Assembly: GCA_017464085.1 (NCBI GenBank) | Contig: JAFUEE010000104.1 | Span: 16,226 to 80,225, forward strand | Length of the DNA stretch: 64,000 nt | Reading direction: 5' to 3' | Source: Pseudomonadota bacterium | Lineage (GTDB): Bacteria > Myxococcota_A > Bradymonadia > UBA4248 | Part shown: positions 1 to 43,505 of the stretch, in pieces | Numbering within the stretch: position 1 is the first letter of the stretch | Layout: each line of letters opens with the position of its first letter | Position numbers and translations under genes: made by a program | The notes under the pieces: model-generated | What the model saw: the letters and a program-made list of their open reading frames with translations, nothing else | What the model was told of the DNA's origin: nothing | Database searches by the model: none

Positions 1-203
1 GTTTTCCCTTTGGTGTGATCATATTCATAAAAGCGCCTTTTGATTTTGATCTTGAAATACAAAACGCTGCAAGCCCGCGATGTTCATGGTCATTCTAAGA
101 AATATAGGCCATGCCTGGGAGGCTTGAACGCTGTGATGATCGCGATGCCATCACAAAATCATCAAATTATAATGATTTTGTATTCCTGACAATCGGTAAC
201 AAA

Positions 204-252
204 AAAGCCCGCTGTCTTCGCATATCAAATGTGGGAGAGCGGGCTTTTGGTG
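204..252 (-). terminator. Putative intrinsic terminator: hairpin GCCCGCT...AGCGGGC flanked by A-run and T-run, downstream of the LysM multidomain gene
   Basis: Inverted repeat gcccgct/agcgggc with A6 upstream and T4 downstream on the + strand, i.e. a T-run follows the hairpin on the minus strand, immediately 3' of the gene ending at 273. Confidence 0.45.
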
Positions 253-272
253 TGGTTATTTACGGCTTGGCA

Positions 273-3191
273 TTACCAGTTGCTCTGTAGGAAGCTGACA
301 ATATTTTTGTATGTAGAAACAGAATAATGCAGGCCGTCAGAGGTCTCGAAGCCGTTGTCTTTCATATAGCTGTAGAGATCGATGACACGCGCGCCTTCGA
401 CGCTGGCGATCTTGTTGTTGAAGTCGACAATCTGTGATTCGGTGACTTTATAACCTTTTTCTTTTGCTTTTGCTTCGTTGATGGGGCCGACATTGACGAT
501 GGTGAGCGAGATGCCGGAATTCATGAGGTCAGTGTATTTTTTGATATAGCTTTCGGCATTGCCGAGGTCGTTGACGCCAAGCAGGATGACATAACTGGTG
601 AGACCAGATTGTTTGGCCTGCGGGAGAGCGTTATTGACTAGCCAGGAATAGCCTTTTCCGACTTCGGCGATGATCTGTCCGGCGGAGAGTCCGCCAAAAG
701 CCTGGAGGCCGACGGTACGGCTGTCGCCGATGACGACGAGTTTGCTTGGATCGGTCGCTGGTTTTTCTTCAGAATTCTGAGCGGGCGCTTCGTTTGCCTG
801 AGCCTGAGCGGGTTCTGCAGAGGCGACAGTGCTTGTGGCTGCCGCAGCGGGTGTGGCGTTGACATCTTCAAAAGTGGCCGCGAGTGCGCCGACACGTTTC
901 AGATTGCTCCGTTCATTGGTGAGCGCCCAGTTGCGCCAGCCCTGCTGGAGGTTGGAAGCGGAGCCTTCTGTATCGGAGAACATGGCGCGGCCCATGCCTG
1001 AATATTTGAACGCATCGCCATAAGCTTTTGGGGCATCGTCGATGGCCGCTTCGAATTCCTTGCGTCTGAGGGAATCCCAGCCGCCGTACATGCCGCAGAT
1101 ATCTTTGTAGTAGAGTTTGAGCCTGGAGACCAGCGTCGTGTAAGCTGCAGATGAATAATTGTCGCCCCAGATGCGAGCGGCTTCCTGTTTGATCCATGTT
1201 TCAGGCATGAGAGCGTCAAACATGTCAGTCGCTTGACCTTGACCATCATAGTATCTGGCATACGAATTTTCTGTGGCGTGTCCGGCGGTTTCATGACCAT
1301 AGACGCGAGCTTCGTCGCCTAGGGATTCGGCCATGGATTTGGCAAAGTTTTCTTCGCCTTTTGCAGTGTTGCATGCATAGAGCTGAACACGGACATCGCC
1401 GCGCAGGGAGCCGCGAATCTCATTGACAAAAGCGTCCACGCTTTGAGAGCCCAGGCTTCCGCGCGGGAAGTTCAGAGAATCCTGCGAGCCGTGATAATAG
1501 AGGCTGAGGTTTTTGATCTTGAGGTGTTCTGGTTCCGCTTCGGCTGATTCGGGTTTGGATTGCGCATATCTGTCGTGCAGGTTTTTATAGACGGTGTTTG
1601 TGAGATTTTTGGCGGCATCAGAAGAGTTCGCCATCATGGCGCTGCCCAGGCTCAGCGCGGTATCGACGGTTTTCGTGGATTTGGCGACACCAGTCGCGAG
1701 GTTGGCAAACTCACGGTTGTTGTTGTTATTATTGTACCCAGCATTGCCGTAGCTGTCTTTTTGTGTGCCGCCATAGAGGGATACCGTGATGCCATTGGGA
1801 TGTGCTTTCTGGATTTCGTTGACTGTATTGTCAGATGTCTCGACATAGCCGGAGGCTTTGGGCTTGTTGTCTGCGACAGGTTCCGGATCGTTTGCGAGCG
1901 AGTTCCCGGCAGGTTCGTTTCCAGCAACGGCAGGTTCATTTCCAGCAGGTTCATTTCCAGCAGGTGTTTCGACTGGAGCCGAGATAAGGGGGGATATTGC
2001 AGGCGCAGCGGGTTCTTGCTGGACTGGCTGTTCAGTTTTGGGTTTGGCAGTGATATTGCCATAGGTTTGGAAGTAAATCTTCGCGACGCCGCCGCGCAAT
2101 CTGCCCATGGCTTCCATGTTGTCCGGCTTTTCAAAATTGACGCACCATTTGTAGGCGGCGTCATATGCGCCCTGCTCGGTGTTTGGCGCGTTTTTCATGG
2201 CATTGAGCACGCCGGTATAGCCTTCAGAGAGCTCGCTTGCCAGGAATTCGAGCTGGCCGGGAATGGAGTTGAGGTCATAGCCGTGAGTCTCGCAGAAATC
2301 GATGAGATTTTGCATTCTGTTGTCGTGCCACTGGCAGAGGCCGTAACTCGTGCCGTTGTCGCCGACGCATGTCGTATCGAAGTTGGATTCGCTCTGGATG
2401 TTGGCCAGAACGCCGCAAGCGCCTGCATTGCTCATGCCGAGGTTTGAGACGATATATGAGAAGATCGAATTCTTGTTTGCAAATACCGCTCTTGGCTTGT
2501 CCAGATCGATATCCGCTCTCCGGTTTGTAATGAGGTCGTCGATTTCGACGGAGTAGATGGATCTGGCAAACTGATAAGGATTGTTCGAATTTGAATAGAA
2601 GTAATTGATGAGATCCTGATTGGTTGTAAAGTCGGGATGTTCTTCCAGGAGTTGCTCAAGCGGGCTCTTCGTGGGCAGGTCGAGTTCGCCTTCAGGGGCG
2701 TTTGATTGCGCGGGCGCGTTTGCTGGGGCGTTGTTTGATTGCGCGGGCGCTTCAGCCGGGGCGTTGTTTGCCTGAGCCGGCGCTTCAGCCGGGGCGTTGT
2801 TTGCCTGAGCTGGCGCTTCAGCCGGGGCGTTGTTTGCCTGAGCCGGCGCTTGCACGGGGGCATCTGCGGTCGCATTGTTGGCCTGGGCGGAATCGTTGAG
2901 TCTGGGGATGTTGAGCATGTCACCCGGATGGATGACAGATTTCGGGGTCATGCCGTTGTATTCGGCGAGGAACTTGTAACCGCCTGGGACGTTGAACTTT
3001 TCGGCGATGGCCCAGAAGCTGTCGCCTGTTTTTACCTTATAGACCTCTGCAGTGACGTACTGCGGGGCATTTTGGGTCATCTGTTCGTCTTTTGCTGAAG
3101 CTTTTGAGGCATTTGCAGAAGCCTGCTGCGCGCCCTGATTGGACACATCCGCTTCGGCTGCTCGCTGGGTCTTGACTGATACGGCTGGCAT
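273..3191 (-). CDS. Multidomain peptidoglycan-targeting protein: N-terminal LysM, 11-aa tandem repeats, phage-tail-type lysozyme-like domain, unknown central region, C-terminal SGNH/GDSL hydrolase; no signal peptide
   Basis: Long ORF with a GGAGG RBS 5 nt before the ATG at 3191, so the protein starts MPAVSV. A LysM-like segment (YKVKTGDSFWAIAEKF...HPGDMLNIP) is followed by NNAPAEAPAQA repeats. The motif ANIQSESNFD...GLCQW resembles the phage tail lysozyme family. The C-terminus has a GDS block (VVIGDSRT), GVNDL, and a DGLHYS-like SGNH signature. Confidence 0.75.
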   Translation of the reverse strand: MPAVSVKTQRAAEADVSNQGAQQASANASKASAKDEQMTQNAPQYVTAEVYKVKTGDSFWAIAEKFNVPGGYKFLAEYNGMTPKSVIHPGDMLNIPRLNDSAQANNATADAPVQAPAQANNAPAEAPAQANNAPAEAPAQANNAPAEAPAQSNNAPANAPAQSNAPEGELDLPTKSPLEQLLEEHPDFTTNQDLINYFYSNSNNPYQFARSIYSVEIDDLITNRRADIDLDKPRAVFANKNSIFSYIVSNLGMSNAGACGVLANIQSESNFDTTCVGDNGTSYGLCQWHDNRMQNLIDFCETHGYDLNSIPGQLEFLASELSEGYTGVLNAMKNAPNTEQGAYDAAYKWCVNFEKPDNMEAMGRLRGGVAKIYFQTYGNITAKPKTEQPVQQEPAAPAISPLISAPVETPAGNEPAGNEPAVAGNEPAGNSLANDPEPVADNKPKASGYVETSDNTVNEIQKAHPNGITVSLYGGTQKDSYGNAGYNNNNNNREFANLATGVAKSTKTVDTALSLGSAMMANSSDAAKNLTNTVYKNLHDRYAQSKPESAEAEPEHLKIKNLSLYYHGSQDSLNFPRGSLGSQSVDAFVNEIRGSLRGDVRVQLYACNTAKGEENFAKSMAESLGDEARVYGHETAGHATENSYARYYDGQGQATDMFDALMPETWIKQEAARIWGDNYSSAAYTTLVSRLKLYYKDICGMYGGWDSLRRKEFEAAIDDAPKAYGDAFKYSGMGRAMFSDTEGSASNLQQGWRNWALTNERSNLKRVGALAATFEDVNATPAAAATSTVASAEPAQAQANEAPAQNSEEKPATDPSKLVVIGDSRTVGLQAFGGLSAGQIIAEVGKGYSWLVNNALPQAKQSGLTSYVILLGVNDLGNAESYIKKYTDLMNSGISLTIVNVGPINEAKAKEKGYKVTESQIVDFNNKIASVEGARVIDLYSYMKDNGFETSDGLHYSVSTYKNIVSFLQSNW
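2701..2865 (-). repeat. In-frame 33-bp coding tandem repeat, about 5 copies, encoding NNAPAEAPAQA
   Basis: Direct repeats of gcgcttcagccggggcgttgtttgcctgagccg are visible in the sequence; the translation gives repeated NNAPAEAPAQA units. Confidence 0.85.
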
Positions 3192-3515
3192 AAAATCCTC
3201 CAAGGTTAAAGTTTAATCGAATCACTGTAAGCGCTACCATTATTTATTATACACAGAATGCGATTTGATGACCAAATAATTTTCATGAATGTCCTGAATT
3301 TATCGTGCGCTCTCTGCGATTAAAGATTTTGTTCTGAGCGCGAATTTTTGGGAGGGGGAAGACTCCCCCTGCGCGGCTATTTCTGCGAAATACGCCGCTA
3401 CCCCCTCGTCGAATCGCAAAGCGCCTTTTCACAATGTTGTGCGGTCAATTTTGTGATTTGCCATCTAATGCTATAAGAGACTTGCCAGGTGAACTTGTGT
3501 GAGAGGGAGGTGAAG
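3192..3515. promoter_or_regulatory. Divergent intergenic promoter region between the LysM-lysozyme gene (-) and the nucleotidyltransferase gene (+); contains REP-like element A1
   Basis: 324-bp non-coding gap between divergently oriented genes. It contains AT-richer stretches (ttgtgatttgccatctaatgctataag) upstream of the + gene. Confidence 0.35.
3352..3410 (+). repeat. REP-like palindromic element, subfamily A copy A1 (GGGGGAAGACTCCCCC-TGCGCGGC-TAT-hairpin-ATA-CGCCGC-TACCCCCTCG)
   Basis: Near-identical copies lie at 9051..9107 (inverted), 22851..22911, 50107..50162 and 4522..4608. The internal hairpin is tatttctgcgaaata. Confidence 0.8.
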
Positions 3516-4520
3516 ATGGCAAAGACAGGCGGTATTTTATTGTGCGCAGGTTTCGGGTCGCGTCTTGCGCCGCTGACGGAGGTCGTGCCCAAGCCGGCGA
3601 TCCCGTTCTGCGGCGTGCCGATGGCGCATTATGCGCGCGCGGCGCTGGAGCGGGCGGGCGTGGCTGAGATGGGGATGAACGTGCATCATCTGCCGGAGCG
3701 CATGATCGAGGCGATGGATGGCGGCCGCTGGATGGATCGCGCGCGGGAAATGCACATATCCCGAGAGGAAGGCGGTATATTGGGCACGGGCGGCGGTGCT
3801 GCAAGGCTCGCAGGGATGATGCCGGACTGCGACCGTTTTGTGATCTATCACGGGGACGTGCTCTGCGGCGCGGACATTTCTGAGGCGCTTGAATCACATA
3901 TTGCGTCGGGCGCGAAAGTGTCGCTCGTCGTGCTTCCGCGTCCGGAAGCGGTCAGGGAGAACGTCAGGCAGTCGCTCGGCATGATCGGCGTCGTGGATCA
4001 TGAGATCGTCTGTATCCGGGACTGGTATAAAAATGACTGTATCATCGAGTTTTCCCCGCGCTGTTTTAGCGGGATACATATTGTGGAGCGCGGCGTGCTG
4101 GAGGCGATCGCGGATCGGGGCAGCGTCTGTCTGGTGACCGAGGTTTACCGGGAGATGCTTGACCGGGGGGAGGCAATCCACGCCTGCGAGCCGTCCGGTG
4201 CTGTATATTTTGCGGATGTGGGAACGCCGGCAACTTATCTGTCGGCACAGCGCGCGTGCCTGAGAAGCCGTGAATATGGCGACGGTCCGGGGCTGCCTGT
4301 CTTGTGCGAAGGAAAGACGCTGTATGACCGCGGGGACCCGAGCGTATCATTCGGCGCGGTGAATATCGGCGATCAAGTCAGGATAGAGGGCAATGTATGC
4401 CTCAACCCGGGGGCGTCAGTTTCAGGCGATGTGTCCTTGCAGGATGAGATGGTGTGCGCGGAAGGCGGCATCAAGCCGGACGGCGCCTGGATATGCGGTG
4501 GAGCGGCACGTGCGCGATGA
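3516..4520 (+). CDS. Sugar-1-phosphate nucleotidyltransferase (NTP-transferase domain plus C-terminal left-handed beta-helix)
   Basis: RBS GGGAGG 5 nt upstream of ATG 3516. The N-terminal motif GGILLCAGFGSRLAPLT is a variant of G-x-G-x-R-L. The C-terminus has hexapeptide-like repeats (VRIEGNVCLNPGASVSGDVSL). Confidence 0.8.
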   Translation: MAKTGGILLCAGFGSRLAPLTEVVPKPAIPFCGVPMAHYARAALERAGVAEMGMNVHHLPERMIEAMDGGRWMDRAREMHISREEGGILGTGGGAARLAGMMPDCDRFVIYHGDVLCGADISEALESHIASGAKVSLVVLPRPEAVRENVRQSLGMIGVVDHEIVCIRDWYKNDCIIEFSPRCFSGIHIVERGVLEAIADRGSVCLVTEVYREMLDRGEAIHACEPSGAVYFADVGTPATYLSAQRACLRSREYGDGPGLPVLCEGKTLYDRGDPSVSFGAVNIGDQVRIEGNVCLNPGASVSGDVSLQDEMVCAEGGIKPDGAWICGGAARAR

Positions 4521-4521
4521 G

Positions 4522-4608
4522 CGCGGCGTATTTGCAACGCCAAATAGCCGCGCGGGGGTAGCGGCGTATTTGCAACGCCAAATAGCCGCGCAGGGGGCGT
4601 TGCCCCCT
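4522..4608 (-). repeat. REP-like element subfamily A, about 1.5 tandem copies (A2), abutting the stop codon of the nucleotidyltransferase gene
   Basis: gcggcgtatttgcaacgccaaatagccgcgc occurs twice, followed by gggggcgttgccccc; it lies between convergent genes. Confidence 0.75.
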
Positions 4609-4652
4609 GAAACAAAAACAGCTTGTAGTGTCTGCGAGTCGCCGACTGGGTG

Positions 4653-5495
4653 TTATTTTTCGAGTGCTTCTTCGAGCATGCTGACGAGCGATTCGACATC
4701 GAAGGTGCTCTGAATTTTGTGGCCGTTGAGGAAGAAGGTCGGCGTGGATTCGACGCCGTTCGTGAGGCCTTCCTTTTTGGCATCGACGACTGAGGCGCGC
4801 ACGGCGGCATCGCGCATGAGCGCGTCGAATTTTTGAGGGTCGGCGCCGATGCTTGCGGCCCATTCGTTCATTCTTTCGAGGGAGAAATCGTCAAAATTCT
4901 CGTAGGACTTGAGGAGGTAGGGCCACGCGAGGCCGAGTTTTGCAGCGGCTTCGACGGCGATGGCGGCCTGGCTTGAATTTTCGTGTGATTTGATCGGGAA
5001 GAGCCGGAGATTGACGGCAATCTTGTCTTTGAACGATGAGTTTTCGAGCGCGTGAATGAGCTTAGGGACGTGTTTCGAGCAGTAAGGGCAGCGTCCGCAT
5101 AGATAGACGGAGAGGACGACTTTTGCATTTGGATTTCCCCAGACGTGTTCGGGAGAAAGGGAGATTTTTGCGGGCGGCAGGATGGAGGCCATGACGAGTG
5201 CGCGCTGATCCAGCGCGTGCTTGATTTCTTCGGTTGTTTTTCCGGATTTAGCGAGCCTGCATGTTTCGTCCGCGAGGCGGCTCGCGAGTTTGCAGGGCTT
5301 TGCGGCCTGGAGGCATTTTTCGATTGTGTCGTCGCAGCAGTCATAGGGGTAGGCGGAGCGCATGACGCTCTGTGCCGTCGCTTTGGCATCTCCCGCGAGG
5401 GCATCGCATGCGGCAGTCTGGGCGACTGCTTGCGCGGAGAAGAGCATTGAGGCGGCGATTATCAAAGAGTTCAGGGATTTCATAGGCTTCACCAT
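4653..5495 (-). CDS. DsbA-family thiol:disulfide oxidoreductase (thioredoxin fold, CPYC active site) with signal peptide and a Cys-rich N-terminal extension
   Basis: N-terminus MKSLNSLIIAASMLFSAQAVA is signal-like. The CxxC motif sits within VYLCGRCPYCSKHVPKL. The C-terminus TPTFFLNGHKI is typical of DsbA-like proteins. An alternative start is at 5483. Confidence 0.75.
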   Translation of the reverse strand: MVKPMKSLNSLIIAASMLFSAQAVAQTAACDALAGDAKATAQSVMRSAYPYDCCDDTIEKCLQAAKPCKLASRLADETCRLAKSGKTTEEIKHALDQRALVMASILPPAKISLSPEHVWGNPNAKVVLSVYLCGRCPYCSKHVPKLIHALENSSFKDKIAVNLRLFPIKSHENSSQAAIAVEAAAKLGLAWPYLLKSYENFDDFSLERMNEWAASIGADPQKFDALMRDAAVRASVVDAKKEGLTNGVESTPTFFLNGHKIQSTFDVESLVSMLEEALEK

Positions 5496-5558
5496 CTGTG
5501 TCGGGGTATTGCCCGGAAAGTCAGGGCGATCAGATATTTAGCGAATCAGCGTGAAAAA

Positions 5559-8015
5559 TCAATTCTGGAGACAGGAAGAGGAGCGCTGCATGTCTTCGTC
5601 CTGCTGAATGATGTCGCGGATGCGGTCTGAGGCGCTCTGTCCGTCGAAGTCCCAAGGGAGTTCGTAGAAGGTGTCGGGTTTGCTGGCGGGATCATAGAAG
5701 TCGAGGTCGCCGGTCCATCGGACGGAGATCATGCCTCTGTAATCGTCGTAAGCGTAGTCAGGCGCGGTGCTCCAGCGTCTGCTGGCCTTGAACTGTGCGC
5801 CGACGCGGACGCCTGCCCAGGCAGGTGACCAGATCTGGAATGCGCCACGCGCAGTCGTGTCGCGCCGGAGGTCGCCGGATGTGAAATAATTCTGTGATTT
5901 TCCGTAATCGTCGTAGGATGCGGCGCCGCTGAGACGAAAAAGGATGTCGCGTTTGGGGATGCGGTAGTCGAGCGCGAGGCTGATGTTCGCGCCGTTGAGG
6001 TCGTACATGTCGCCGACGGAGAACCAGTGCCGGTAGGAAGCGCCCCAGGTGAGCGAGAGCCCTGCATAAAGGCTGTGCCTGCCGCCTGCGCCGATGTCGA
6101 GCTCATCCCTTGTGCGCACGCGTTGCCGAAAGGTCCTGTGGCCGTATCCGGCGAAGATATAGAGCCATTTGTGGATTTCCAGGTCAGCTTCGAGCCTGTG
6201 GCTTGTATAGAACATCAGGGGGCCGTTGTCGTATTTGTCATTTCCGAAGATGTAGAGCATTTCGGGGCGGTAGTAGGCGCCGAACTTGACTGGATCGAGC
6301 TGGAGGACGGTCCCGAGCCGCATAGATGTGTCGAGATAGCTGGAATCGGCGGCGTCTTTAGAGGTGAGCAGCTGTCCGGTGATCTGTCCTTCGAGGACAA
6401 TGCGCGCGAAAGCGGGGCTCCATGGATCGAGCCCGATGCGGAGATCGCCGTCCAGGAAGGGGCTTCCGAGAGATTTGTTCGTGAGCCTGGGATCGCTTGG
6501 GGAGCCGCTGAGCGCATTGGATGCATAGCCGCCGTCGATTTCGGCTTTCCAGGTAAAATTTGGGTCAGCGGAGAGGCCGTTGATCGAGCGCAGTGATTTG
6601 AGCGCCTGTTTGTCAGCGCGTGAAAGCTCGGGGGAAGCGTAGGCATTCTGGAGATGCCCGAGCGCGCTGTCTTTGTCGCTGCGCGCCATGTCGTTGAATG
6701 CGCGGACGAGCTCATGTTTGGCGGAATCTTTTGGCTGTTCGCACTGTGCGCCGTCGAGGATTCTGTCGGCTTCTTCGGGCATGGCCATCTGGATATAGGT
6801 CCATGCAGCCCATGCGCGCGTTTCGCAGTCTTGAGGATTCTGAGTGAGGAGCGCATTGAACGTTCTGAGCGCCCATGGATAGTTTTGCGCGCGCGCGTAT
6901 GCGATGCCGAGGGCGCGTTCGATTTCCGGGGAGCCGTCGCGGTTTTCCTTGAGGAGATCGACCGCGTCGCGCTGGAGGTCTGGGGAGTTCCAGAGCATCT
7001 GTGCTTCTTCGAGGGTCTGTAATCGTGCGGCCTCGAGCGCTTCAGGATCAGCGAGATTGAGCGAAGCGTCGGTCATGGTGTCGGTATCGCCATTGAGTTC
7101 CCATGCGAGCAGGATTTCGGAGCCGTCAAATATTCGGTCCTGCGGTGAGGCGTCCGTCTCAGGGAGGTTCTGGGACACGGGGACTTCCTCGATGAATTCG
7201 CCATCGCTGCAGCATCTGAAGCCGAGCGTGAGCGGCGTCCAGTTCATCGGGATATAGGTGCACTTGTGGTTGCCTTTGGTATCCGCGCAGTTGAACGCGC
7301 CGCCGCGGACTGTCATGCCGCTTCCGTTTGCGGTGTGTTCCCAGATGTTGCCGCTCAGGTCATAGACATCCCATGCGTTGACGCAGTCTTTGAAAGAGCC
7401 TGTGGGCATGAGGTGGAAGCCGTATCTGCCGTAAGTTTCGATGCCGTTGCAGGTCTGCGGATCATATTCATTTCCGTAAACATAGTCATAATTCTGTTCT
7501 CCGCGGCATGCATATTCCCATTCGGAGGGGGCGCATAGGCGTTTTCCAGCGGCATTGCAAGCGGCTTCAGCCGCGCTGTTGTTGTCTCCGATGTTCCAGG
7601 GCATGACGTTCGGGCGTGAGGTGGCGACGGAGCTGTCTGAGCCTGCGGAAGTCTCGGTCGCATCGGGCCGTGAGGCTTCATATTTGTCGATGCAGTAGGT
7701 GTCAGAGATTGCGGCCATGTCGTCCGGGCATGTGAAGACTTTGACGGGCGGTTTGGGATCTGGATTCGGATCAGGGTCGGGGTTCGGATCCGGTTCGGGT
7801 TTCGGATTGGGGTCGATGGTGCAGATGTGCGCCTGGCAGATGAAGTTTTTGCCGCAGTCTTGATCGATGATGCACCTGTACTGGCATTCGCCGAGTTCAT
7901 CGCAGAACATGGGGCTGATGCAGTCCTCATCGCGGTAACATCTCTGTTCGGGGCTGCAGGAAGCGAGCGTGGCAGCGCATAGTGTCAGGCTTATCAGATA
8001 GGGTGTCTTTGACAT
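5559..8015 (-). CDS. Lipoprotein with Cys-rich knot, PDPNPDP linker, FGE-sulfatase (SUMF1-like) domain, TPR-like helical region and a beta-strand-rich C-terminal domain
   Basis: Lipobox LASCS after a signal peptide. FGE hallmark segments are GNEYDPQTCNG, VYDLSGNIWEHT and RGGAFNC. The C-terminal 350 aa are rich in alternating aromatic, Gly, Arg and Asp residues, typical of a beta-barrel or beta-sandwich. Confidence 0.8.
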   Translation of the reverse strand: MSKTPYLISLTLCAATLASCSPEQRCYRDEDCISPMFCDELGECQYRCIIDQDCGKNFICQAHICTIDPNPKPEPDPNPDPDPNPDPKPPVKVFTCPDDMAAISDTYCIDKYEASRPDATETSAGSDSSVATSRPNVMPWNIGDNNSAAEAACNAAGKRLCAPSEWEYACRGEQNYDYVYGNEYDPQTCNGIETYGRYGFHLMPTGSFKDCVNAWDVYDLSGNIWEHTANGSGMTVRGGAFNCADTKGNHKCTYIPMNWTPLTLGFRCCSDGEFIEEVPVSQNLPETDASPQDRIFDGSEILLAWELNGDTDTMTDASLNLADPEALEAARLQTLEEAQMLWNSPDLQRDAVDLLKENRDGSPEIERALGIAYARAQNYPWALRTFNALLTQNPQDCETRAWAAWTYIQMAMPEEADRILDGAQCEQPKDSAKHELVRAFNDMARSDKDSALGHLQNAYASPELSRADKQALKSLRSINGLSADPNFTWKAEIDGGYASNALSGSPSDPRLTNKSLGSPFLDGDLRIGLDPWSPAFARIVLEGQITGQLLTSKDAADSSYLDTSMRLGTVLQLDPVKFGAYYRPEMLYIFGNDKYDNGPLMFYTSHRLEADLEIHKWLYIFAGYGHRTFRQRVRTRDELDIGAGGRHSLYAGLSLTWGASYRHWFSVGDMYDLNGANISLALDYRIPKRDILFRLSGAASYDDYGKSQNYFTSGDLRRDTTARGAFQIWSPAWAGVRVGAQFKASRRWSTAPDYAYDDYRGMISVRWTGDLDFYDPASKPDTFYELPWDFDGQSASDRIRDIIQQDEDMQRSSSCLQN

Positions 8016-8066
8016 GATTTCAACTGTTTTGGGGCGTATGTGATGCGAATTTTGGGGGAGAATAAA

Positions 8067-8903
8067 TCAGGCGTTCTGCACGGCCTGGATAAGCCTTGGC
8101 AGGAGCGGTTCAAATTTGACGCCGTACCAGTGCGCGTCATCGCCCTGAGTATGCTCGATGCATGCGACGGTGTAATCTGCGGCGATTTTGGCCGCATCGA
8201 ATGCGGACTTGCCTTGGAGGAGGGCGCCGACGAATGCGGATGCGTAGACATCGCCTGTGCCATGGCAGCCTTTGGCGATTTTGCGGTGTTCGTAATAGGA
8301 TGACTCCCCGTTTCCGACGACGACAACGCCTGTTTTGTCAGGGGCATAGCCGACGCCTGTGAGGATGACGTTTTTGGCGCCGCTTTTGAGGAGCGCTTTT
8401 GCCAGCGCGTCAATATAGTCGCGGTCGTAGTGCTCGCGGTATTCGATGCCGGTGAGGAAGCATGCCTCGGTGATGTTGGGGAGGATGAAATCCGCAGAGG
8501 AAGCGAGTTTTTTCATGGCCTCGACATAGGCGGTATCGAAAGCGGGGTATAGCTTGCCGTAATCGGCCATGGCGGGATCGACGATGACGGGGGCGTCTTT
8601 TTTGAGGAGTGTCCGTATGATGTCGAGCACGAGGTCGATCTGATGCGTGCTGCCGAGATAGCCGGTATAGATGGCGTCAAAGGTGATTTTTTCTTTGAGC
8701 CAGTGTGCGGCGATTGCGGGGATGTCATCCGTGAGGTCCCGGCATGTGAAGCCGGAAAATCCCGCAGTATGCGTGGACAGGACAGCGGAGGGGAGGATGG
8801 CAGTCTCGAGCCCGCAGGCGGACAGGATGGGGAGTGCGACAGTGAGCGAGCACTGTCCGACGCATGAGATATCTTGGATTGTCAGTATTTTGGCGTAGGG
8901 CAT
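8067..8903 (-). CDS. pdxK: Pyridoxal/pyridoxamine kinase (ribokinase superfamily)
   Basis: Motifs VDPAMAD and GTGD are present and the overall length is 278 aa. An RBS AGGAA lies 7 nt before ATG 8903. Confidence 0.85.
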   Translation of the reverse strand: MPYAKILTIQDISCVGQCSLTVALPILSACGLETAILPSAVLSTHTAGFSGFTCRDLTDDIPAIAAHWLKEKITFDAIYTGYLGSTHQIDLVLDIIRTLLKKDAPVIVDPAMADYGKLYPAFDTAYVEAMKKLASSADFILPNITEACFLTGIEYREHYDRDYIDALAKALLKSGAKNVILTGVGYAPDKTGVVVVGNGESSYYEHRKIAKGCHGTGDVYASAFVGALLQGKSAFDAAKIAADYTVACIEHTQGDDAHWYGVKFEPLLPRLIQAVQNA

Positions 8904-9314
8904 AGCGAAATTCCTGGAATTTTAATGATATGCATAGCTCTGAAAGCGTATCCAGAGCAGACCGGTTTTATTCCAAACAGGTATATGATTCAAGCATTCG
9001 CGCGCGGCATCCTGGACTATTGTGTGAGGTTTTATGAAATATGAAACGTCGAGGGGGTAGCGGCGTATTTCGCAGAAATAGCCGCGCAGGGGGAGTCTTC
9101 CCCCCCCATACAAAAAAGAAAAGTTATCAAGCGTAACCCGTGAAGGGCCGGCCGGAGCGAGTTTAAGTCCGTGAGATAAGGCGCTTGTGCGTGCAAGAAA
9201 ACTGAATGTTGTGAGTCGGTATGGGGCAATAAAAAATTGTTCGCTCTTGAATTATGATGGTTTGCGAGTAAAAGGGTGAGACGGAGTGCTGTTTATGGGC
9301 TGTCAGGAGGTGTT
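8904..9314. promoter_or_regulatory. Divergent promoter region between pdxK (-) and the Cys-rich lipoprotein gene (+); contains REP-like element A3
   Basis: 411-bp non-coding gap with AT-rich segments (ttgaattatgatggtttgcgagtaaaag). An AGGAGG RBS sits at 9305..9310. Confidence 0.35.
9051..9107 (-). repeat. REP-like element subfamily A copy A3 (reverse orientation)
   Basis: gagggggtagcggcgtatttcgcagaaatagccgcgcagggggagtcttccccc is the exact reverse complement of the A1 core. Confidence 0.85.
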
Positions 9315-12300
9315 ATGCGACGGTTGGGATTATGTCTTGCGTGTTGTTTGGTCTTGAATGCCTGTTCGGAAGCGGAGCTGACATGCGCGGATAATACCCG
9401 TAAATGTACGGATGACCATCAAGGAATCCTTCGTTGCGTGGGCGGTGCCTGGGAATGGGCGGAGATGTGCTATAATGACACCGTGTGCGATGACAACAAG
9501 TTTATCTGTGTCCAGGATCCGGATGCGTGCGTGGAAGGGGCGCGCAGATGTTCGAACGACCTGCGGAGGGTGGAAGTCTGCATGGGTGGCAGCTGGGCTC
9601 AGGAACGTGAGTGTTCCGGGACTGAATATTGCGATTCGAACCAGCTCGCGTGCATCACGCCTACGAGCGCTCCGGCTTGTGTCCCGGGAAGTTTTCAGTG
9701 TGTCAACAATGTGATCATGCGCTGCGAGGGCATGGGATGGTCACAGTTTCAGACATGCGCATCGCCTCTGAGGTGCGATGCAGCGAGCGGGACTTGCGTG
9801 AGGGATCAGGAATGCTCTCCGGGTACGAAAAAATGCGATGAGGATCTGAGCCGCACGCTGGTGTGCGCGGATGGCTTCTGGACGCTCGGTCAGTCGTGCG
9901 ATGGCGGGCAATGCGACCAGGCGACGATCGAATGCGCCGTGGGATGTACAGAAGGGGATAAAAAGTGCAGCCCGGGGAAAGACAGCGTGCTCAAGTGCAG
10001 CGGCAATCAGTGGATTTCTGAACAGGCATGCGGCGCTTCGGCATATTGCAATGACCAGAAAGCAGCCTGCGTGGATTTGCCGGTCTGTGTCGAGCACTCG
10101 GCATCCTGCGACCTGAGCGGCGGAAGCGTGAAGGAATGCATCGATGGCAAGTGGCAGACGACGCCATGCACGTCAGGCAGGACGTGCGTGAACGGCAAAT
10201 GCATCGCGACCCTGACGAATGTATGCACGCTCGGGGTCACGGAATGCAAGGACAACAATATCGTCCGATGCGTCGGGGGCATCCCGGAGACGTCGTCGTG
10301 CGGCGATCAGGTCTGCATGGTCAGGGGCGGCAAAGCCGTATGTGAATCACATGTGTGCGATGACGGGGATTCGGCATGTGTATCCGCGACCAGGAAAAAG
10401 ACATGCGAGCAGAACGAATGGCGCGAGATTTCGTGCGGGAGCGGCTACCAGTGTGATGCCGGAAATGGGGAATGTGTCCTGACCGTGTGTACGGAAGGTG
10501 CGATGCGCTGTTCGAACAACGCTGCCGAGAAATGCGTCAATAATGCCTGGCAGGTCGTCAAGGCGTGCGGCTCGGACAACTGCGAGGTCAAGGGCGGGGT
10601 GGCGTCGTGCCAGACAGTCTCTTCGTGCCAGGCGGGGGCTAAGAAATGCAATGGCAATGTCGTGGAGACTTGTTCCGGCAATAAATACACGCAGAGCCAG
10701 GTGTGTGACAGCGCCACGCAGATCTGCAGCGCTTCGGGGACGAACGCTTCGTGTGTGGCGCGTGTCTGTACGGAAGGCGCGTACAAATGCGAAGGTTCGG
10801 CGCTGAAATTCTGCAAGGACAATGTGTGGGTGACCTCGCAGACGTGCTCGGGGGACAAGCCTCTGTGCGATGCGTCCAAGTCGGCCTGCGTGGCCAGGGT
10901 GTGCGAAGAAGGCGCGTTGAAGTGCAGCGGGACGGGCAAGAGCCTGATGGTCTGCAAGGGCAATGCCTGGAAGACGCAGACGGAGTGCTACAAGTCGGGC
11001 AGCACCTGTGTGGTCCGCGCCGGCAAGGCCGCCTGTGAGGCAAAGGTGTGCACGGATGGCGTGACCTGCACGGGCAATACGCTCCGAGTCTGCAGCGGCA
11101 ATGCCTATATCGTCGAGAATGCATGCCTGAACACGGAGACCTGCAGCGTGGAAAGCGCGTCCTGTGAAGCCAATCCCGAATGCGCGTCCGGGGAATATAA
11201 GTGCGAGGGCTCGACACTGTATATGTGCTCTCCGGCGCGTCAGTGGCAGTCGAAGAATACATGCGTGAGCCCGGAAATCTGCGACGCGTCGTCCAAAAAA
11301 TGCGTCGATACGTCGGTGTGCTCGGCCGGAAGCTATTACTGTGACGGCCAGGTGCTCAAAAAGTGTTCGGGCGGCCAGTGGGCGACCGAAGAGACTTGCG
11401 ATATCACATATAGTTGTAATGCGGACAAGAAGGCATGCGTCCTCAAGCCTGTCTGTACGGATGGCGAATACTCGTGCAATGGCAAGACGCCGAGGACTTG
11501 CCAGGGGGGCCAGTGGAAAGACGGCAATCCGTGTTCGGCATCGCAGACATGCAGCGCGTCGCTCAAAAAATGTGTCGAATGCGATGAAAATGATTTCCAG
11601 TGCAGCGGCCAGACGCTTCAGAAATGCGTCTCCGGTGCCTGGGTCACTCATGAAAATTGCTCGTCCGGGCAGACATGCAATGCCAATCTGGAGATGTGTG
11701 TCGAGTGCAGCGGTGACATCAGCCAGTGCAGCGGCCAGACACTGCTGTCGTGCGTGGATTACCACTGGAAGACCGAAAAGGAGTGCGACAATGCCAGTTA
11801 TTGCGATGCATCTCAGAAGAAATGCATCAAGAAAGACGTGTGCACAAATGGCGAATATGCATGCGTGAACAACAGCCTCAATATCTGTACCAATGGCCAG
11901 TGGCAGGAAAAAGAGTCATGCACGGCGGAGATGAATTGTGATGCAAACGCAAGGAAATGCGTGCTCAAGCCCGTCTGCATGCAAGGGGAGGCTGTGTGTG
12001 ACGGCAACAGCCTGAAGACATGTGATGCATCGGGGCAGTGGGCGGTCAATGACTGCGGCATGGATGCGCTCTGCGTGACCGCGAATGCGTCGGCGCAGTG
12101 TGTGTCCAAGATGACGCTGCCCACGTGGTGCAACACGCAGCATGTCAGGGATGACCGCGACCAGGGGTATGGGCGCGTGCTTCTGCCAGACGGCGTCAAG
12201 CCCGAAGATATTTCCGCGCATTTCGTGTGCGGCGATGTGCAGCATCCGGTCAGTTCCTGGACATACGGCAGTGCGGCTGTATATAACAAGGATTGCGATG

Positions 12301-12959
12301 ACTGCGGCAACAACATCGAGTTCATGAGTTATTCGGTGTCGGCGCCTGCGGGCACATATCGCTGCGCGTTTACGTTCGATTTTGGGCCTCAGACCATCGC
12401 CTGCCCGGCGAACAATGATGGGAATGATGCGATTGCGCCGATCGTCTTGAGCGATTCGACACAGCTGACATCCGCTCAGACGAAGGAGATTACAGTCCTT
12501 GCGCCGTCAGAAGATGCGCCGACATGGTGTTATTTCAAGCATTTTGATGAGCCTGGCCAGAATGGATTCCAGGGCACCTGGCGGGCATACGGCAGGATTC
12601 TTCCGCCTGGCCTTGCGACGCCTGCGCAGATCACAGCCCGTCTGATCTGTGGAGCTTCCGATGTGCCTGCAGCGAACTGGACCGTCATGCGCGAAGCGGA
12701 GCAGAATTTGTTCTGCCCTGGTAATGGCTATGAGGCTTGTGGCGCTAACAATCTGGAGTATATGAGCGCGCCTCTGATCGACAATGCGCATATTTTGGAG
12801 CCTGGCAGTTACAGCTGCGCGTTCCGCTTTGATGTTGGCGGCAAGTCTTATGTCTGCTCGACTTATCGCGATGCCTCGAATACAGGCGGGCAGCCGGTTT
12901 TGCTTGTGCCGGGGAAAATTCTCACAAGTGCGGAATCTTGGGGGATCACTGTTCAGTAA
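9315..12959 (+). CDS. Cysteine-rich repeat lipoprotein: about 20 tandem 40-45-aa six-Cys modules followed by a duplicated ~150-aa C-terminal domain
   Basis: AGGAGG RBS lies 4 nt before ATG 9315. Signal and lipobox are LVLNACS. A module of the form C-x-EG-x-x-KC-x-G-x-x-L-x-x-C-x-x-x-x-W-x6-C-x6-C-x5-6-C repeats throughout. The C-terminus has two copies of a domain beginning PTWC. Confidence 0.8.
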   Translation: MRRLGLCLACCLVLNACSEAELTCADNTRKCTDDHQGILRCVGGAWEWAEMCYNDTVCDDNKFICVQDPDACVEGARRCSNDLRRVEVCMGGSWAQERECSGTEYCDSNQLACITPTSAPACVPGSFQCVNNVIMRCEGMGWSQFQTCASPLRCDAASGTCVRDQECSPGTKKCDEDLSRTLVCADGFWTLGQSCDGGQCDQATIECAVGCTEGDKKCSPGKDSVLKCSGNQWISEQACGASAYCNDQKAACVDLPVCVEHSASCDLSGGSVKECIDGKWQTTPCTSGRTCVNGKCIATLTNVCTLGVTECKDNNIVRCVGGIPETSSCGDQVCMVRGGKAVCESHVCDDGDSACVSATRKKTCEQNEWREISCGSGYQCDAGNGECVLTVCTEGAMRCSNNAAEKCVNNAWQVVKACGSDNCEVKGGVASCQTVSSCQAGAKKCNGNVVETCSGNKYTQSQVCDSATQICSASGTNASCVARVCTEGAYKCEGSALKFCKDNVWVTSQTCSGDKPLCDASKSACVARVCEEGALKCSGTGKSLMVCKGNAWKTQTECYKSGSTCVVRAGKAACEAKVCTDGVTCTGNTLRVCSGNAYIVENACLNTETCSVESASCEANPECASGEYKCEGSTLYMCSPARQWQSKNTCVSPEICDASSKKCVDTSVCSAGSYYCDGQVLKKCSGGQWATEETCDITYSCNADKKACVLKPVCTDGEYSCNGKTPRTCQGGQWKDGNPCSASQTCSASLKKCVECDENDFQCSGQTLQKCVSGAWVTHENCSSGQTCNANLEMCVECSGDISQCSGQTLLSCVDYHWKTEKECDNASYCDASQKKCIKKDVCTNGEYACVNNSLNICTNGQWQEKESCTAEMNCDANARKCVLKPVCMQGEAVCDGNSLKTCDASGQWAVNDCGMDALCVTANASAQCVSKMTLPTWCNTQHVRDDRDQGYGRVLLPDGVKPEDISAHFVCGDVQHPVSSWTYGSAAVYNKDCDDCGNNIEFMSYSVSAPAGTYRCAFTFDFGPQTIACPANNDGNDAIAPIVLSDSTQLTSAQTKEITVLAPSEDAPTWCYFKHFDEPGQNGFQGTWRAYGRILPPGLATPAQITARLICGASDVPAANWTVMREAEQNLFCPGNGYEACGANNLEYMSAPLIDNAHILEPGSYSCAFRFDVGGKSYVCSTYRDASNTGGQPVLLVPGKILTSAESWGITVQ

Positions 12960-12963
12960 TTTT

Positions 12964-13042
12964 CCATGCCTTGCGCTTTCGGCGCTACGGCATGGCTCGC
13001 CTGCTATCGCCTTTGGCGATACGCGGCGCTTGTTTTTTTGAT
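12964..13042 (+). terminator. Hairpin cluster and T-run 3' of the Cys-rich lipoprotein gene; includes REP-like hairpin C1 tatcgcctttggcgata
   Basis: ccatgcc...ggcatgg inverted repeat encloses gcgctttcggcgc. This is followed by tatcgcctttggcgata and then cttgttttttt. Confidence 0.45.
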
Positions 13043-13107
13043 GCCGATGCATCTGCTGTCGGCTCAGTTCGATGGCCTCATAGGCCGCTTTTTTGTGGGA
13101 TATAACG

Positions 13108-13788
13108 ATGATCGATATGCCGACTTCCAAAGATGTTCTGATCGCGCCGAGCCTGCTCTCTGCGGATTTTGCTTTTCTCGGTGACGAGGTCCGGAAACTC
13201 AAGGATGCAGGTGCGGACTGGCTTCATTTTGATGTGATGGACGGCCGGTTCGTGCCGAATCTTTCGGTCGGTGTGCCTGTGCTCAAGAGCCTCCGGCGCG
13301 TGACAGACCTGCCGATTGACGTTCACCTGATGATTGTGGAGCCGGACAGCCTTCTCGGGGCGTTTGCAAAAGCCGGTGCGGATACGCTGACAGTCCAGGC
13401 GGAAGCCTGCACTCACTTGCATCGGACGCTTCAGAACATTCATAATCTCGGATGTCGTGCAGGTGTCAGCCTCAATCCTCATACGCCTGTGGATTGCCTG
13501 GCGTATGTCATGGAGCTCGTCGACTTCGTGCTCGTCATGACTGTCAATCCGGGTTTTGGCGGGCAGTCCTATATCGATGCTTGCACGGGAAAGATCGCGG
13601 AGATACGGCGTCGATGGCCGGATGTCTGCATCGAGGTGGATGGCGGCATCAAAGCGGATACAGTCGGCAAGGCGTCCTGCGCTGGCGCGAATGTCTTTGT
13701 ATCCGGTTCCGGCGTGTTTTCGCAGCCCGATTATGGCGCGGCAGTGAAGGAATTGCGCCAGCTGGCACTGCGCGCGCGTGCGCAATGA
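13108..13788 (+). CDS. rpe: Ribulose-phosphate 3-epimerase
   Basis: The segments PSLLSADF, HFDVMDGRFVPN and VDGGI are classic Rpe motifs. The start is chosen at the first ATG (MIDMPTS). Confidence 0.9.
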   Translation: MIDMPTSKDVLIAPSLLSADFAFLGDEVRKLKDAGADWLHFDVMDGRFVPNLSVGVPVLKSLRRVTDLPIDVHLMIVEPDSLLGAFAKAGADTLTVQAEACTHLHRTLQNIHNLGCRAGVSLNPHTPVDCLAYVMELVDFVLVMTVNPGFGGQSYIDACTGKIAEIRRRWPDVCIEVDGGIKADTVGKASCAGANVFVSGSGVFSQPDYGAAVKELRQLALRARAQ

Positions 13789-13927
13789 CAGGTAGACTGG
13801 ATGCATGTCGTTCTGGCGGCGATGATTGGCGCTTGACGATTTTGTACAGTCTGTATAGTAATTAAGTTGCTATTTTTAAGAACTGAATCATCCTGATGAG
13901 GATGAATAAGTAATTGAAGGCTGTAAA

Positions 13928-16246: not shown

Positions 16247-16265
16247 GTATCATTGAGCTCTTTAT

Positions 16266-16293
16266 AGCCCGGCTGAAAAGCCGGGCTTTTTTG
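16266..16293 (+). terminator. Canonical rho-independent terminator (GCCCGGC tgaaaa GCCGGGC TTTTTT)
   Basis: Perfect 7-bp GC stem, 6-nt loop and T6 run, 20 nt after the TPR gene stop. Confidence 0.8.
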
Positions 16294-16366
16294 TTCTTTT
16301 AGAGAGGCGCGCTCGCTGCCAATAAGAGCTGCAATGGGGGGCATTGCATTTGGGAAGCATAAAAAA

Positions 16367-16526
16367 GCGCCGCGTATCGGCAGAAAGCCGAAAGCGGCGT
16401 TGCGCAGGCGTATGGCGGCAGCCATAGCCGCGCCTGTGAAAATAAGCGCGCCGCGTATCGGCAGAAAGCCGAGAGCGGCGTTGCGCAGGCGTATGGCGAC
16501 AGCCATAGCTGCGCTTGCAAAAGAAT
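16367..16526. repeat. Intergenic 80-bp direct repeat, 2 copies, each containing REP-like hairpins (gcgtatcgg...; tatggcggcagccata)
   Basis: gcgccgcgtatcggcagaaagccga[a/g]agcggcgttgcgcaggcgtatggcg[g/a]cagccatagc[c/t]gcgc is repeated head-to-tail between convergent genes. The ORFs on both strands here are repeat artefacts. Confidence 0.8.
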
Positions 16527-16588
16527 AAAAAAAGGGCGGCTGAGTGCCGCCCTGTGCGTTAATTGGCTTTAGAGAGCTCTATACGGGC

Positions 16589-22711: not shown

Positions 22712-22850
22712 ATAGCCTCTCCTTGCACTCGTGTTAAAAAAGGCAAAAAACAAGTCAGATTCTACGATTTTTGCGCTTTTCTGGCAAGTGAGTTACTATA
22801 TTTTGTTTACATGTATTTCAAGCCTGAGAGAATTTTGGCTTTTTTGTGGA

Positions 22851-22911
22851 GGGGGAAGACTCCCCCTGCGCGGCTATTCCTTGCCGGGGCAAGGAATACG
22901 CCGCTACCCCC
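22851..22911 (+). repeat. REP-like element subfamily A copy A4 (variant inner hairpin tattccttgccggggcaaggaata)
   Basis: It shares the gggggaagactccccctgcgcggc...tacgccgctaccccc frame with A1 and A5. The inner stem-loop is replaced by a longer perfect palindrome. Confidence 0.8.
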
Positions 22912-22936
22912 ACTCGAATCGGATGCGCGTCGTCGG

Positions 22937-24136: not shown

Positions 24137-24426
24137 ATTGCACTTCCTTGATGAGCGAGTCACGCCAGGCTTCTGCTGACTTGAAACACTCTATAATAAA
24201 TTGGGGCGTTTGACCAGTAAACTGACGCGCATACCATGTGTAAGGTATCTGAATTGTCTCGCTCTGAATGATAATACAGGGGAGATATTTCAGGATAACT
24301 TGAAAATGACTTGATTTGTTCGAGTGATTTGTTAATTGATGCAAAGATATTTGGGTTAATTCTTTCGGTCTGCTTTGGCGGATCTGTCCTGTTCTGCGAG
24401 TGCAGAGTTTTTTATATGGAGGAGAA

Positions 24427-27924: not shown

Positions 27925-27939
27925 TAGGTTTGTATTTCC

Positions 27940-27960
27940 GGCGCGCGCAGCGCGCCTTTC
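27940..27960 (+). terminator. Putative intrinsic terminator GGCGCGC gca GCGCGCC TTTC
   Basis: 7-bp GC stem with a short T-rich tail, 16 nt after the stop at 27924. Confidence 0.45.
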
Positions 27961-28156
27961 TGGCCGCTATCCCTCAGGGATATGCGGCTTTTTGCATTTT
28001 GCTGAATCTGTCATATCGGTCATGGTGTGGACAATGCGTATCAGATGTGGCAAAAGGGCCGGGGCGTATGGAGTGAAACGAAATAGCCACGGCGCGCGGG
28101 CGCATGACCGCGTGCGGTCAAAGCCGGCGCATAAAATTTAAAAAAATGAGATAGAG

Positions 28157-28804: not shown

Positions 28805-28922
28805 AGCGTCGGTTCTGCTTTTTTATTAGAATGAATGGAATTTTGTGTGTAAAATTATTATGACATGGCCTGTGAGAGCGGGCTGATTTCTTGTGTCGTG
28901 TGATACAGAATAGGTAAGGATA

Positions 28923-29792: not shown

Positions 29793-29811
29793 TTCCCGGA
29801 GGGCTGGAAGC

Positions 29812-43503: not shown

Positions 43504-43505
43504 CC

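Follow-up and report, generated by a model that had tools for sequence, protein, structure and literature searches.

What does a domain with the fold of the formylglycine-generating enzyme (FGE) do in a lipoprotein that continues into an outer-membrane beta-barrel? The question is raised by a gene in a 64,000-nucleotide stretch of contig JAFUEE010000104.1 (positions 16,226 to 80,225; this whole stretch is called the window hereafter) from a bacterium placed by GTDB in the Bradymonadia (Myxococcota_A). The open reading frame (ORF) lies at 5559..8015 on the minus strand, begins with ATG and encodes 818 aa followed by the stop codon. A preliminary description of the DNA had treated the gene as an isolated oddity that has no partner gene in its neighbourhood. 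Here, we report that neither point holds: on the sequence evidence the gene is a fusion of two genes that adjoin in most Myxococcota, where both belong to a conserved five-gene cassette, and a DsbA-like gene of the same cassette lies just downstream. In the reading that we favor, at a probability of about 45%, the protein carries a non-enzymatic FGE-like module that is held or exported by a dedicated Slam-like barrel and folded by its own disulfide machinery.

The architecture of the protein is real; all of its features lie on the minus strand and are given here in window positions. The N-terminus, MSKTPYLISLTLCAATLAS-C20, reads in translation as a signal peptide with the lipobox L-A-S-C (aa 1-20, 7956..8015); Cys20, near-invariant in the homologues, is predicted to be lipidated and has Ser at +2. 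A small knot of eight cysteines conserved among the homologues (C26, C32, C38, C44, C48, C54, C60 and C65; aa 26-65, 7821..7940) is modelled by AlphaFold2 (AF2) as small beta-hairpins with a predicted local distance difference test score (pLDDT) of ~90. It is joined to the FGE part by a Pro-rich spacer of the PDPNPDP type (aa 68-91, 7743..7814; aa 68-90 read DPNPKPEPDPNPDPDPNPDPKPP), identified from the sequence and the homologue alignment, whose length and content differ between homologues and in which some of them carry extra Cys-rich inserts. The FGE-fold domain, C-type-lectin-like and 184 aa long (aa 92-275, 7191..7742), is assigned by Pfam (PF03781), profile alignment, AF2 and Foldseek. 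An acidic interdomain linker of low pLDDT and poor conservation (aa 276-323, 7047..7190) marks the two-gene junction of most relatives, and behind it come a periplasmic tetratricopeptide repeat (TPR) domain of ~9 helices with conserved C397 and C425 (aa 324-478, 6582..7046), a 14-stranded outer-membrane beta-barrel (aa 487-771, 5703..6557) and a C-terminal extension (aa 772-818, 5562..5702) made of an acidic helix and the invariant S-S-S-C815, the Cys standing three residues from the end. Full-length homologues form ~20 clusters at 47-79% identity.

Domain libraries see little of the second half: Pfam returns weak TPR matches at aa 367-436 and nothing significant across the last 350 aa, and NCBIfam gives weak matches only, mainly to TPR-containing models, with a weak GldK match among them. 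In the full-length AF2 model, built with 21 homologues, the helical repeats (aa 324-478) and the 14 beta-strands (aa 487-771) have a pLDDT of 80-90, a short helix (aa 796-811) follows the barrel, and the model is poor for aa 75-322 (the FGE part below 50) and for the last 13 residues (also below 50). The preliminary description had read a lipobox, a small Cys knot, a PDPNPDP linker, an FGE domain, TPR helices and ~350 aa of barrel-like composition in one lipoprotein from the sequence alone, and all of these are borne out.

The two halves exist as separate genes in most relatives. When aa 330-818 were searched against 1.84 billion representative proteins, 252 matches were returned, most of them stand-alone proteins of ~500-550 aa aligned from the TPR part through the last residue, and few of them fused. 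A search with the whole protein returned mostly lipoproteins of 470-630 aa, in which lipoboxes are visible and which carry one or two FGE domains besides the Cys knot and lack a barrel. On two contigs (loci L007 and L008) the stand-alone TPR-barrel is the next gene, or the next but one, after the FGE-only gene. We then scanned one genome per species with a tail pattern taken from a 13-sequence alignment, which gave 66 loci, all from metagenome-assembled genomes (MAGs). The labels of these MAGs are Myxococcota, Myxococcales, Bradymonadales, Polyangia, Anaeromyxobacter or 'Deltaproteobacteria'; Oligoflexales, Bdellovibrionales and Acidobacteriota each occur as the label of a single locus. The closest relatives of the window come from animal guts, namely water-buffalo rectum (83% identity), goat omasum and cattle colon. 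Loci were annotated by phmmer on six-frame ORFs and summed over 71 non-redundant loci, 59 of which have at least 1.8 kb upstream and 59 at least 2.6 kb downstream; upstream and downstream counts refer to these two sets. The FGE part is fused to the TPR-barrel at 14 of 59 loci, a separate FGE gene stands directly upstream at 33 and downstream at five, and seven have no FGE gene. At the loci without an upstream FGE gene no alternative cargo was found; one of them, L055, keeps a truncated FGE-gene remnant with the Cys knot only.

Across the 71 loci, all of them from uncultured Myxococcota and relatives, the usual gene order is FGE-lipoprotein, TPR-barrel, a membrane-anchored rhodanese without the catalytic Cys, MauE/DoxX and a DsbA-like protein. 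Downstream of the TPR-barrel, a DsbA-like gene is found on the same strand at 52/59 loci, the rhodanese at 49/59, MauE at 47/59 and all three at 46/59. In the window, the DsbA-like gene (4653..5495, minus strand) begins 63 bp past the stop codon of the fused gene, on the same strand, and encodes a secreted protein of 280 aa with an N-terminal signal-like sequence and Pfam matches to Thioredoxin_4 (E 9e-19) and DSBA (E 2e-7). It has a C-G-R-C-P-Y-C active site and an N-terminal 'YPYDxCDxT...C' Cys motif, YPYDCCDDTIEKC, in keeping with its family (63 homologues), which shares a CxRCP(F/Y)C site and a four-Cys N-terminal segment 'hpYDxCDxT...CL'. In the cassette rhodanese, which has an N-terminal membrane anchor and a conserved VPCPE motif, the active-site Cys is replaced (consensus VvVyGDG); the MauE/DoxX protein has a conserved SCGCFAS motif. 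These partner motifs were taken from alignments of 55-63 homologues and the family assignments were confirmed by Pfam.

The window itself represents a reduced form of the cassette. Six of the seven complete fused loci of the gut type (the window, L001, L002, L010, L012 and L019) keep the DsbA-like gene alone of the three downstream partners, and L006 has none of them; the fused locus L009 shows only DsbA as well, on a contig that ends ~1 kb past the barrel, and the unfused L045 is likewise DsbA-only. No rhodanese or MauE homologue was found by phmmer in six-frame ORFs of the 64-kb window. There is no terminator-like site on the minus strand from 8903 to 4653, which is compatible with co-transcription of the fused gene and the DsbA-like gene. 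Single-linkage clustering of flanking ORFs gave no convincing sixth conserved gene beyond the five families; please note that this clustering is confounded by antisense shadow ORFs in GC-rich DNA. In the literature we found nothing that describes the cassette or the TPR-barrel outer-membrane protein (OMP) family, and the cassette is seemingly an undescribed envelope operon.

Some cassettes have further genes around them. At L037 a VKOR-DsbA fusion gene and a ZIP metal transporter stand immediately upstream (802..2781, by Pfam), and similar extra upstream DsbA matches were seen at L041, L061 and L069, which suggests a clustered envelope thiol-oxidation region. Since the VKOR-DsbA fusion is also present in some loci, the cassette DsbA is an extra and not the sole disulfide oxidase there; it looks dedicated to the FGE-lipoprotein/TPR-barrel system. 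At L008 (13153..15317) the genes behind the cassette encode an ArsR-type regulator, a CdhD-like protein and a small ferredoxin, an arrangement that resembles arsR-hgcA-hgcB of mercury methylation, and Thioredoxin_3, an ArsP_1 permease and DsbD_2 stand on its other side. ZnuA/ABC-3 genes lie beside the cassette at L007. Metal or metalloid associations of the L008 type are not conserved at other loci. In five Myxococcales MAGs (L050, L062, L065, L072 and L074) a second rhodanese and MauE/DoxX pair without DsbA was found 4-9 kb downstream.

We next consider the FGE-like domain. The Pfam FGE-sulfatase match covers aa 148-230 with E 9e-13 and 48.8 bits against a cut-off of 23.3, and the three motifs quoted in the preliminary description are all present, GNEYDPQTCNG at aa 181-191, SGNIWEHT at aa 221-228 and RGGAFNC at aa 237-243. 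The domain has the same length, exactly 184 residues without a single indel, in all 21 full-length homologues, and it contains 11 invariant Cys. When aa 20-300 were modelled alone with a 109-sequence alignment, AF2 gave a pLDDT of 91.5, and Foldseek with this model returned, at probability 1.0, CalU17, bacterial and human FGE, pFGE, ToxD, OvsA, EgtB and PvdO. The best solved sequence relative in a profile search is an inactive paralogue, pFGE/SUMF2 (E 2e-13).

The correspondences between the window domain and human FGE were read from the profile alignment, in the numbering of human FGE, whose catalytic cysteines are C336 and C341 and whose structural disulfides are C218-C365 and C235-C346. In this alignment C153 and C268 fall on C218 and its partner C365, and C170 and C252 on C235 and its partner C346, and both structural disulfides (C153-C268 and C170-C252) are apparently retained. 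C243 corresponds to the first catalytic cysteine, C336, and W225 to the conserved W299. At the position of the second catalytic cysteine, C341, the window domain has a non-Cys residue, and the conserved Ser preceding C336, S333, is replaced by A240, the invariant Ala of RGGAFNC. The Cu-binding pair, which in catalytic FGEs belongs to the motif GGS[YF][LM]CHxSYC, is not intact: of the two-Cys Cu(I) site only the C336 equivalent is kept, and the C341 equivalent is absent from an alignment that has no indels in 21 homologues. About 20 residues ahead of the RGG motif are missing relative to FGE, and the whole domain is ~70-100 residues shorter than catalytic FGEs. C243, W225, H227, D245 and H250 are invariant.

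The genomic context agrees with this. No sulfatase signature (PS00523 or CxPxRxxxxTG) was found by regular expression in the six-frame ORFs of the 64-kb window, apart from a single chance-like match in a 77-aa ORF, and Pfam identified no sulfatase among the 14 largest or neighbouring ORFs, as the preliminary description had stated for the neighbourhood. As far as its sequence tells, the window protein is not a canonical FGE, and the public names 'formylglycine-generating enzyme required for sulfatase activity' and 'SUMF1/EgtB/PvdO family nonheme iron enzyme' are very probably wrong or misleading. The earlier suggestion of a non-canonical FGE scaffold in the envelope gains support in this respect from the broken Cu-site pair, from pFGE as the best relative and from the lack of a sulfatase in the window; what has to be given up is the idea that such a scaffold has no partners.

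The TPR-barrel half belongs to a family that has no Pfam or NCBIfam model. In the AF2 model, even- and odd-numbered strands are connected by short turns of 2-7 residues, a length expected of periplasmic turns, and this would put both the TPR domain and the C-terminus on the periplasmic side. Strands 7-8 carry an invariant Arg-rich motif, GYGHRTFRQxVRTRxExD. TPR Pfam families match 46 of 52 relatives and TPR_Slam (PF24575) two, and the sole recurrent non-TPR Pfam family is PF04575, SlipAM (formerly DUF560), seen in 6/52 members with a best E of 0.002. In the member P0128 the last strands (aa 398-476) align co-linearly with positions 205-287 of the 288 in the PF04575 profile, its end, which leaves the tail as a family-specific extension. 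The NCBIfam scan of the 52 members returned TPR-containing models only; the PgaA and BcsC models match 11-13 of them, and these matches are probably driven by the TPR part. A PDB sequence search with the family profile found TPR proteins only, with no barrel relative and no Slam structure, and tblastn of a family member against plasmids, seeking annotated Slam genes, gave one chance match only. By Foldseek against the PDB, the full model matched best to BcsC (E 9e-11, template modelling (TM) score 0.24-0.31), which likewise has TPRs and a barrel, with PelBC and PgaA also listed, and OmpG was matched with a TM-score of 0.66 on the target. These matches are in line with a protein made of TPRs and a barrel.

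The most conserved feature of the protein, not mentioned in the preliminary description, is its C-terminal tail, RIRDIIQQDEDMQRSSSCLQN; the stretch ERIRDIIQQDEDMQRSSSCLQN is the most conserved segment of all. C815 is among only nine invariant positions in 52 relatives at ~30% identity. The tail takes the place of the aromatic C-terminal signature that is usual for OMP barrels, and the stand-alone TPR-barrels end in the same tail, e.g., ...RVQDLLRQDEQVQRSSSCVQ.

The cysteine numbers of the separate and fused proteins suggest how the two halves may be connected. Cysteines were counted after the lipobox Cys, with the count anchored on the conserved C..DC motif. The count is odd in 49 of 62 FGE-only lipoproteins and in 74 of 97 stand-alone TPR-barrels, whose commonest number, three, matches the conserved trio equivalent to C397, C425 and C815, and it is even in 17 of 18 fused mature proteins. 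The mature window protein has 8 + 11 + 3 = 22. Two pairs assigned by homology in the FGE domain leave seven of its eleven Cys, and hence each half would have one Cys without an internal partner. Odd halves and even fusions suggest, from these counts, that a disulfide joins the FGE half to the TPR/tail half.

The data establish the architecture, the fold, the lost Cu-site Cys, the fused and split forms, the conservation of the operon and the Cys parity; a role in export or anchoring, the disulfide between the halves and binding without catalysis are inferred from them. Putting these observations together, we favor the following sequence of events. The window protein would be exported and lipidated as an outer-membrane lipoprotein, and the DsbA-like enzyme would oxidise its 22 mature Cys, with one bond probably tying the FGE half to the TPR/tail half. 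Where they are present, MauE and the rhodanese-like protein would join the DsbA-like enzyme in disulfide formation, the three being apparently a private periplasmic disulfide-forming set. The TPR-barrel half would serve the FGE-like half as its dedicated anchor or translocon at the outer membrane, in cis in the fused protein and in trans at loci with two genes, a relation that may be likened to that of autotransporters and two-partner secretion. The FGE-like domain would serve as a binding scaffold and not as a formylglycine-generating enzyme. The lack of an 8-stranded cargo domain, the lack of an alternative cargo and the fusable parts together favor a dedicated, stable pairing. What appears new in this system is the tail of the Slam-like TPR-barrel, its FGE-fold partner, the natural occurrence of both fused and split forms, and the private disulfide pathway.

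Several points weigh against this picture. The conserved equivalents of C336 and W299, together with H227, D245 and H250, may leave room for another catalytic or metal site in the FGE-like domain, and the FGE half may simply stay periplasmic. The cysteine parity fits one free thiol in each half equally well; the sequences are related, which makes the parity effectively one conserved pattern and not a set of independent observations, and the Cys pairs assigned are only two, by homology. As for the likeness to Slam, the best PF04575 score is 18.2 bits against a Pfam threshold of 22, no member passes, and the window protein has no PF04575 match even at E<=1; this is why the family is called Slam-like here and not a member of Slam. 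The cargo known for Slam ends in an 8-stranded barrel at its C-terminus (PMC5449769), whereas the FGE-lipoprotein has none and is made up of one or two FGE-fold domains and the Cys knot. In addition, the FGE-less loci without alternative cargo point to a barrel tied to one partner more than to a translocon of general use.

If the favored reading is true, lipoprotein handling of the Slam or type 11 secretion system (T11SS) kind extends beyond Proteobacteria, into a phylum whose model species reportedly lacks a T11SS; the natural fused and split pair could be used to study how a barrel handles its partner; an unannotated OMP family is defined, which comprises more than 250 representative clusters and whose unusual, invariant C-terminal tail bears a Cys; and the FGE fold gains one more non-enzymatic use. 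A bolder version may be formulated, namely that Myxococcota own a Slam-like (type 11-like) system in two-gene and autotransporter-like fused forms, whose FGE-lipoprotein is folded by a private MauE/DsbA pathway and latched covalently to the SSSC tail of the barrel, the peptide-Cys groove of FGE being reused as a disulfide clamp. We regard this full version as speculative and unlikely to hold in all its parts.

The same observations can be arranged differently. The FGE-like domain could be an enzyme or a thiol/metal site around Cys243, H227, D245 and H250, in a periplasm-facing redox or metal module whose barrel is a solute channel and whose rhodanese-like, MauE/DoxX and DsbA-like proteins form a redox relay instead of folding helpers; thiol oxidation, or the handling of a thiophilic metal or sulfur species, would be example chemistries. 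The invariant C336 and W299 equivalents with an invariant His and Asp nearby speak for this, as does the fact that every downstream partner is from a thiol- or sulfur-related family. Some cassettes also stand beside metal or metalloid genes (ArsR-type, CdhD-like, ArsP_1 and DsbD_2 genes at L008, ZnuA/ABC-3 at L007, ZIP at L037), fusion through a periplasmic TPR domain is simplest when all soluble parts are periplasmic, and the fold relatives include the periplasmic PvdO and the sulfoxide and selenoxide synthases. However, the domain has neither an intact canonical two-Cys Cu site nor Ser333, the rhodanese has no catalytic Cys (consensus VYGDG) and the flanking metal genes differ from locus to locus. 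The gut lineage has lost rhodanese and MauE and kept the fused gene and DsbA, which fits folding helpers better than an obligatory relay. We consider a redox or metal module possible but rather doubtful. The tail, ...QRSSSC(L/V)Q, could also be a built-in substrate or substrate mimic that occupies the peptide groove of the FGE-like domain, where it is oxidised or held in a mixed disulfide with Cys243. In crystal complexes of FGE, the active-site Cys forms a mixed disulfide with the substrate Cys. Points in favor of such a tail are that the two proteins are encoded side by side or fused, that the tail Cys is invariant across the family and that the parity is odd plus odd; yet the tail has no CxPxR-like motif, the cysteine that forms the mixed disulfide in FGE is C341, the very one that is missing in the window domain, and the full-length model has a pLDDT below 50 for both the FGE part and the last 13 residues. 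This arrangement appears quite improbable to us.

Two further proposals were considered, and we rejected both. With BcsC as the top Foldseek match (E 9e-11), PelBC and PgaA also listed and the PgaA and BcsC models of NCBIfam matching 11-13/52 family members, the barrel could be an exopolysaccharide (EPS) export porin of the BcsC/PgaA/PelB/AlgK-AlgE type, its lectin-fold FGE half binding or modifying the polymer; authors in the T11SS field have pointed out that Slam-type and EPS porins may parallel each other in evolution or structure (PMC8406197). PgaA-type porins are 16-stranded (PMC8406197), though, and the window barrel has 14 strands, the TM-score to BcsC is low, the NCBIfam matches probably come from the TPR part, and the cassette has no conserved gene for a glycosyltransferase or synthase. 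Synthase-dependent EPS porins (BcsC/PgaA/PelB) are characterised by 16 to 18 strands behind a long TPR array and by a polysaccharide synthase in their operon. On the strand number, the low TM-scores and the missing synthase gene, an EPS porin is very improbable. The protein could also be an ordinary FGE that acts on sulfatases encoded by other parts of the genome, as the above-threshold Pfam match and the public annotation of the homologues as FGE or SUMF1/EgtB/PvdO family proteins would have it. This is scarcely credible for a domain whose Cu-site Cys pair is not intact, with the second cysteine absent and Ser333 replaced by Ala, which is ~70-100 residues short of catalytic FGEs, sits in the envelope on a lipid anchor and in one chain with an outer-membrane barrel, has no sulfatase signature within 64 kb and is accompanied by conserved disulfide enzymes instead of sulfatases.

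Some other ORFs of the window may be recorded here. A 1227-aa predicted lipoprotein (9276..12959, plus strand) consists of ~25 tandem Cys-rich repeats of ~45 aa and has no Pfam match; together with other large Cys-rich ORFs it suggests that the secretome of this organism is very disulfide-rich. The C-terminal 220 aa of a 1194-aa ORF (24340..27921, plus strand) match the ALK/LTK glycine-rich domain PF12810 at E 6e-33, a strong bacterial match that is unusual for a domain best known from the ectodomains of animal receptor tyrosine kinases. On the minus strand, a 2054-aa lipoprotein without a Pfam match (16589..22753) has a C-terminal KPEEQ repeat, a 2537-aa protein (33454..41064) has scattered TPR repeats, and a 976-aa protein (273..3203) has tandem 'QANNAPAEAPA' repeats in addition to LysM, a phage-tail-lysozyme domain and a GDSL-like lipase region; this last protein may be a predatory or cell-wall-lytic exoenzyme. 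A TPR protein at 13928..16246 (plus strand) carries ~ten tandem 'GIPLTQRSQP' decapeptides in its C-terminal half. Over the whole window (1..64000) the GC content is ~49-58%, and GC skew is positive in almost every 2-kb bin, so that the cumulative skew rises throughout with no switch.

Among known systems, Slam is the nearest for the TPR-barrel half. The defining features of Slam/T11SS OMPs are a periplasmic TPR domain, a 14-stranded barrel and an adjacent lipobox gene (PMC5449769; PMC8406197), and the family described here shares the N-terminal TPR domain, the 14-stranded C-terminal barrel and the neighbouring gene for a lipobox lipoprotein. It differs from Slam in the invariant Cys-bearing C-terminal tail, in that lipoprotein and barrel can be fused into one chain, and in that the pair is accompanied by its own DsbA, MauE and rhodanese-like genes. 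The hosts differ as well: the literature describes T11SS as proteobacterial and as not encoded in M. xanthus, whereas the hosts of this TPR-barrel family are Myxococcota.

For the chain as a whole, the likeness is to autotransporters and to LptD, and it is an analogy only, without membership by sequence or fold; no Pfam autotransporter or LptD match was found in the window protein. In the lipidated autotransporters NalP and SphB1, for example, a single chain runs from a lipidated N-terminal passenger to a C-terminal barrel, autotransporters and two-partner secretion are fused and split versions of one export principle, and in LptD, DsbA-dependent disulfides tie post-barrel C-terminal Cys to the N-terminal periplasmic domain. 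Unlike in these proteins, the window barrel has 14 strands, not 12 or 26, and a TPR domain stands between passenger and barrel.

The FGE-like half would join other proteins of this fold that are non-enzymatic. Of these, pFGE is one, and PorK/GldK, an outer-membrane-associated FGE-fold lipoprotein of the type 9 secretion ring, is another, acting within a secretion machine. The type 6 secretion immunity protein Tsi3 is a non-enzymatic FGE-fold protein as well and acts by protein binding (10.1101/2021.05.21.445229). The window domain resembles pFGE/SUMF2, Tsi3 and PorK/GldK in having the FGE fold without an intact catalytic Cys pair; it differs from them in keeping the C336 equivalent and both structural disulfides, in five more invariant Cys, in a length of only 184 aa and in being paired with or fused to a barrel. 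With the catalytic FGEs (human SUMF1 and the enzymes of S. coelicolor, T. curvata and M. tuberculosis) it shares the fold and the conserved equivalents of C218-C365, C235-C346, W299 and C336, and it differs from them in lacking the C341 equivalent, in the Ala at S333, in the envelope lipid anchor and in the missing sulfatase context.

Finally, the cassette MauE/DoxX protein (SCGCFAS) and the DsbA-family protein (CPYC/CPFC) resemble the MauE/MauD and DsbB/DsbA pairs. In contrast to these pairs, the DsbA-like protein of the cassette has an extra N-terminal four-Cys segment, the set includes a catalytically dead, membrane-anchored rhodanese domain, and the whole set is tied to one particular client pair, the FGE-lipoprotein and its TPR-barrel.

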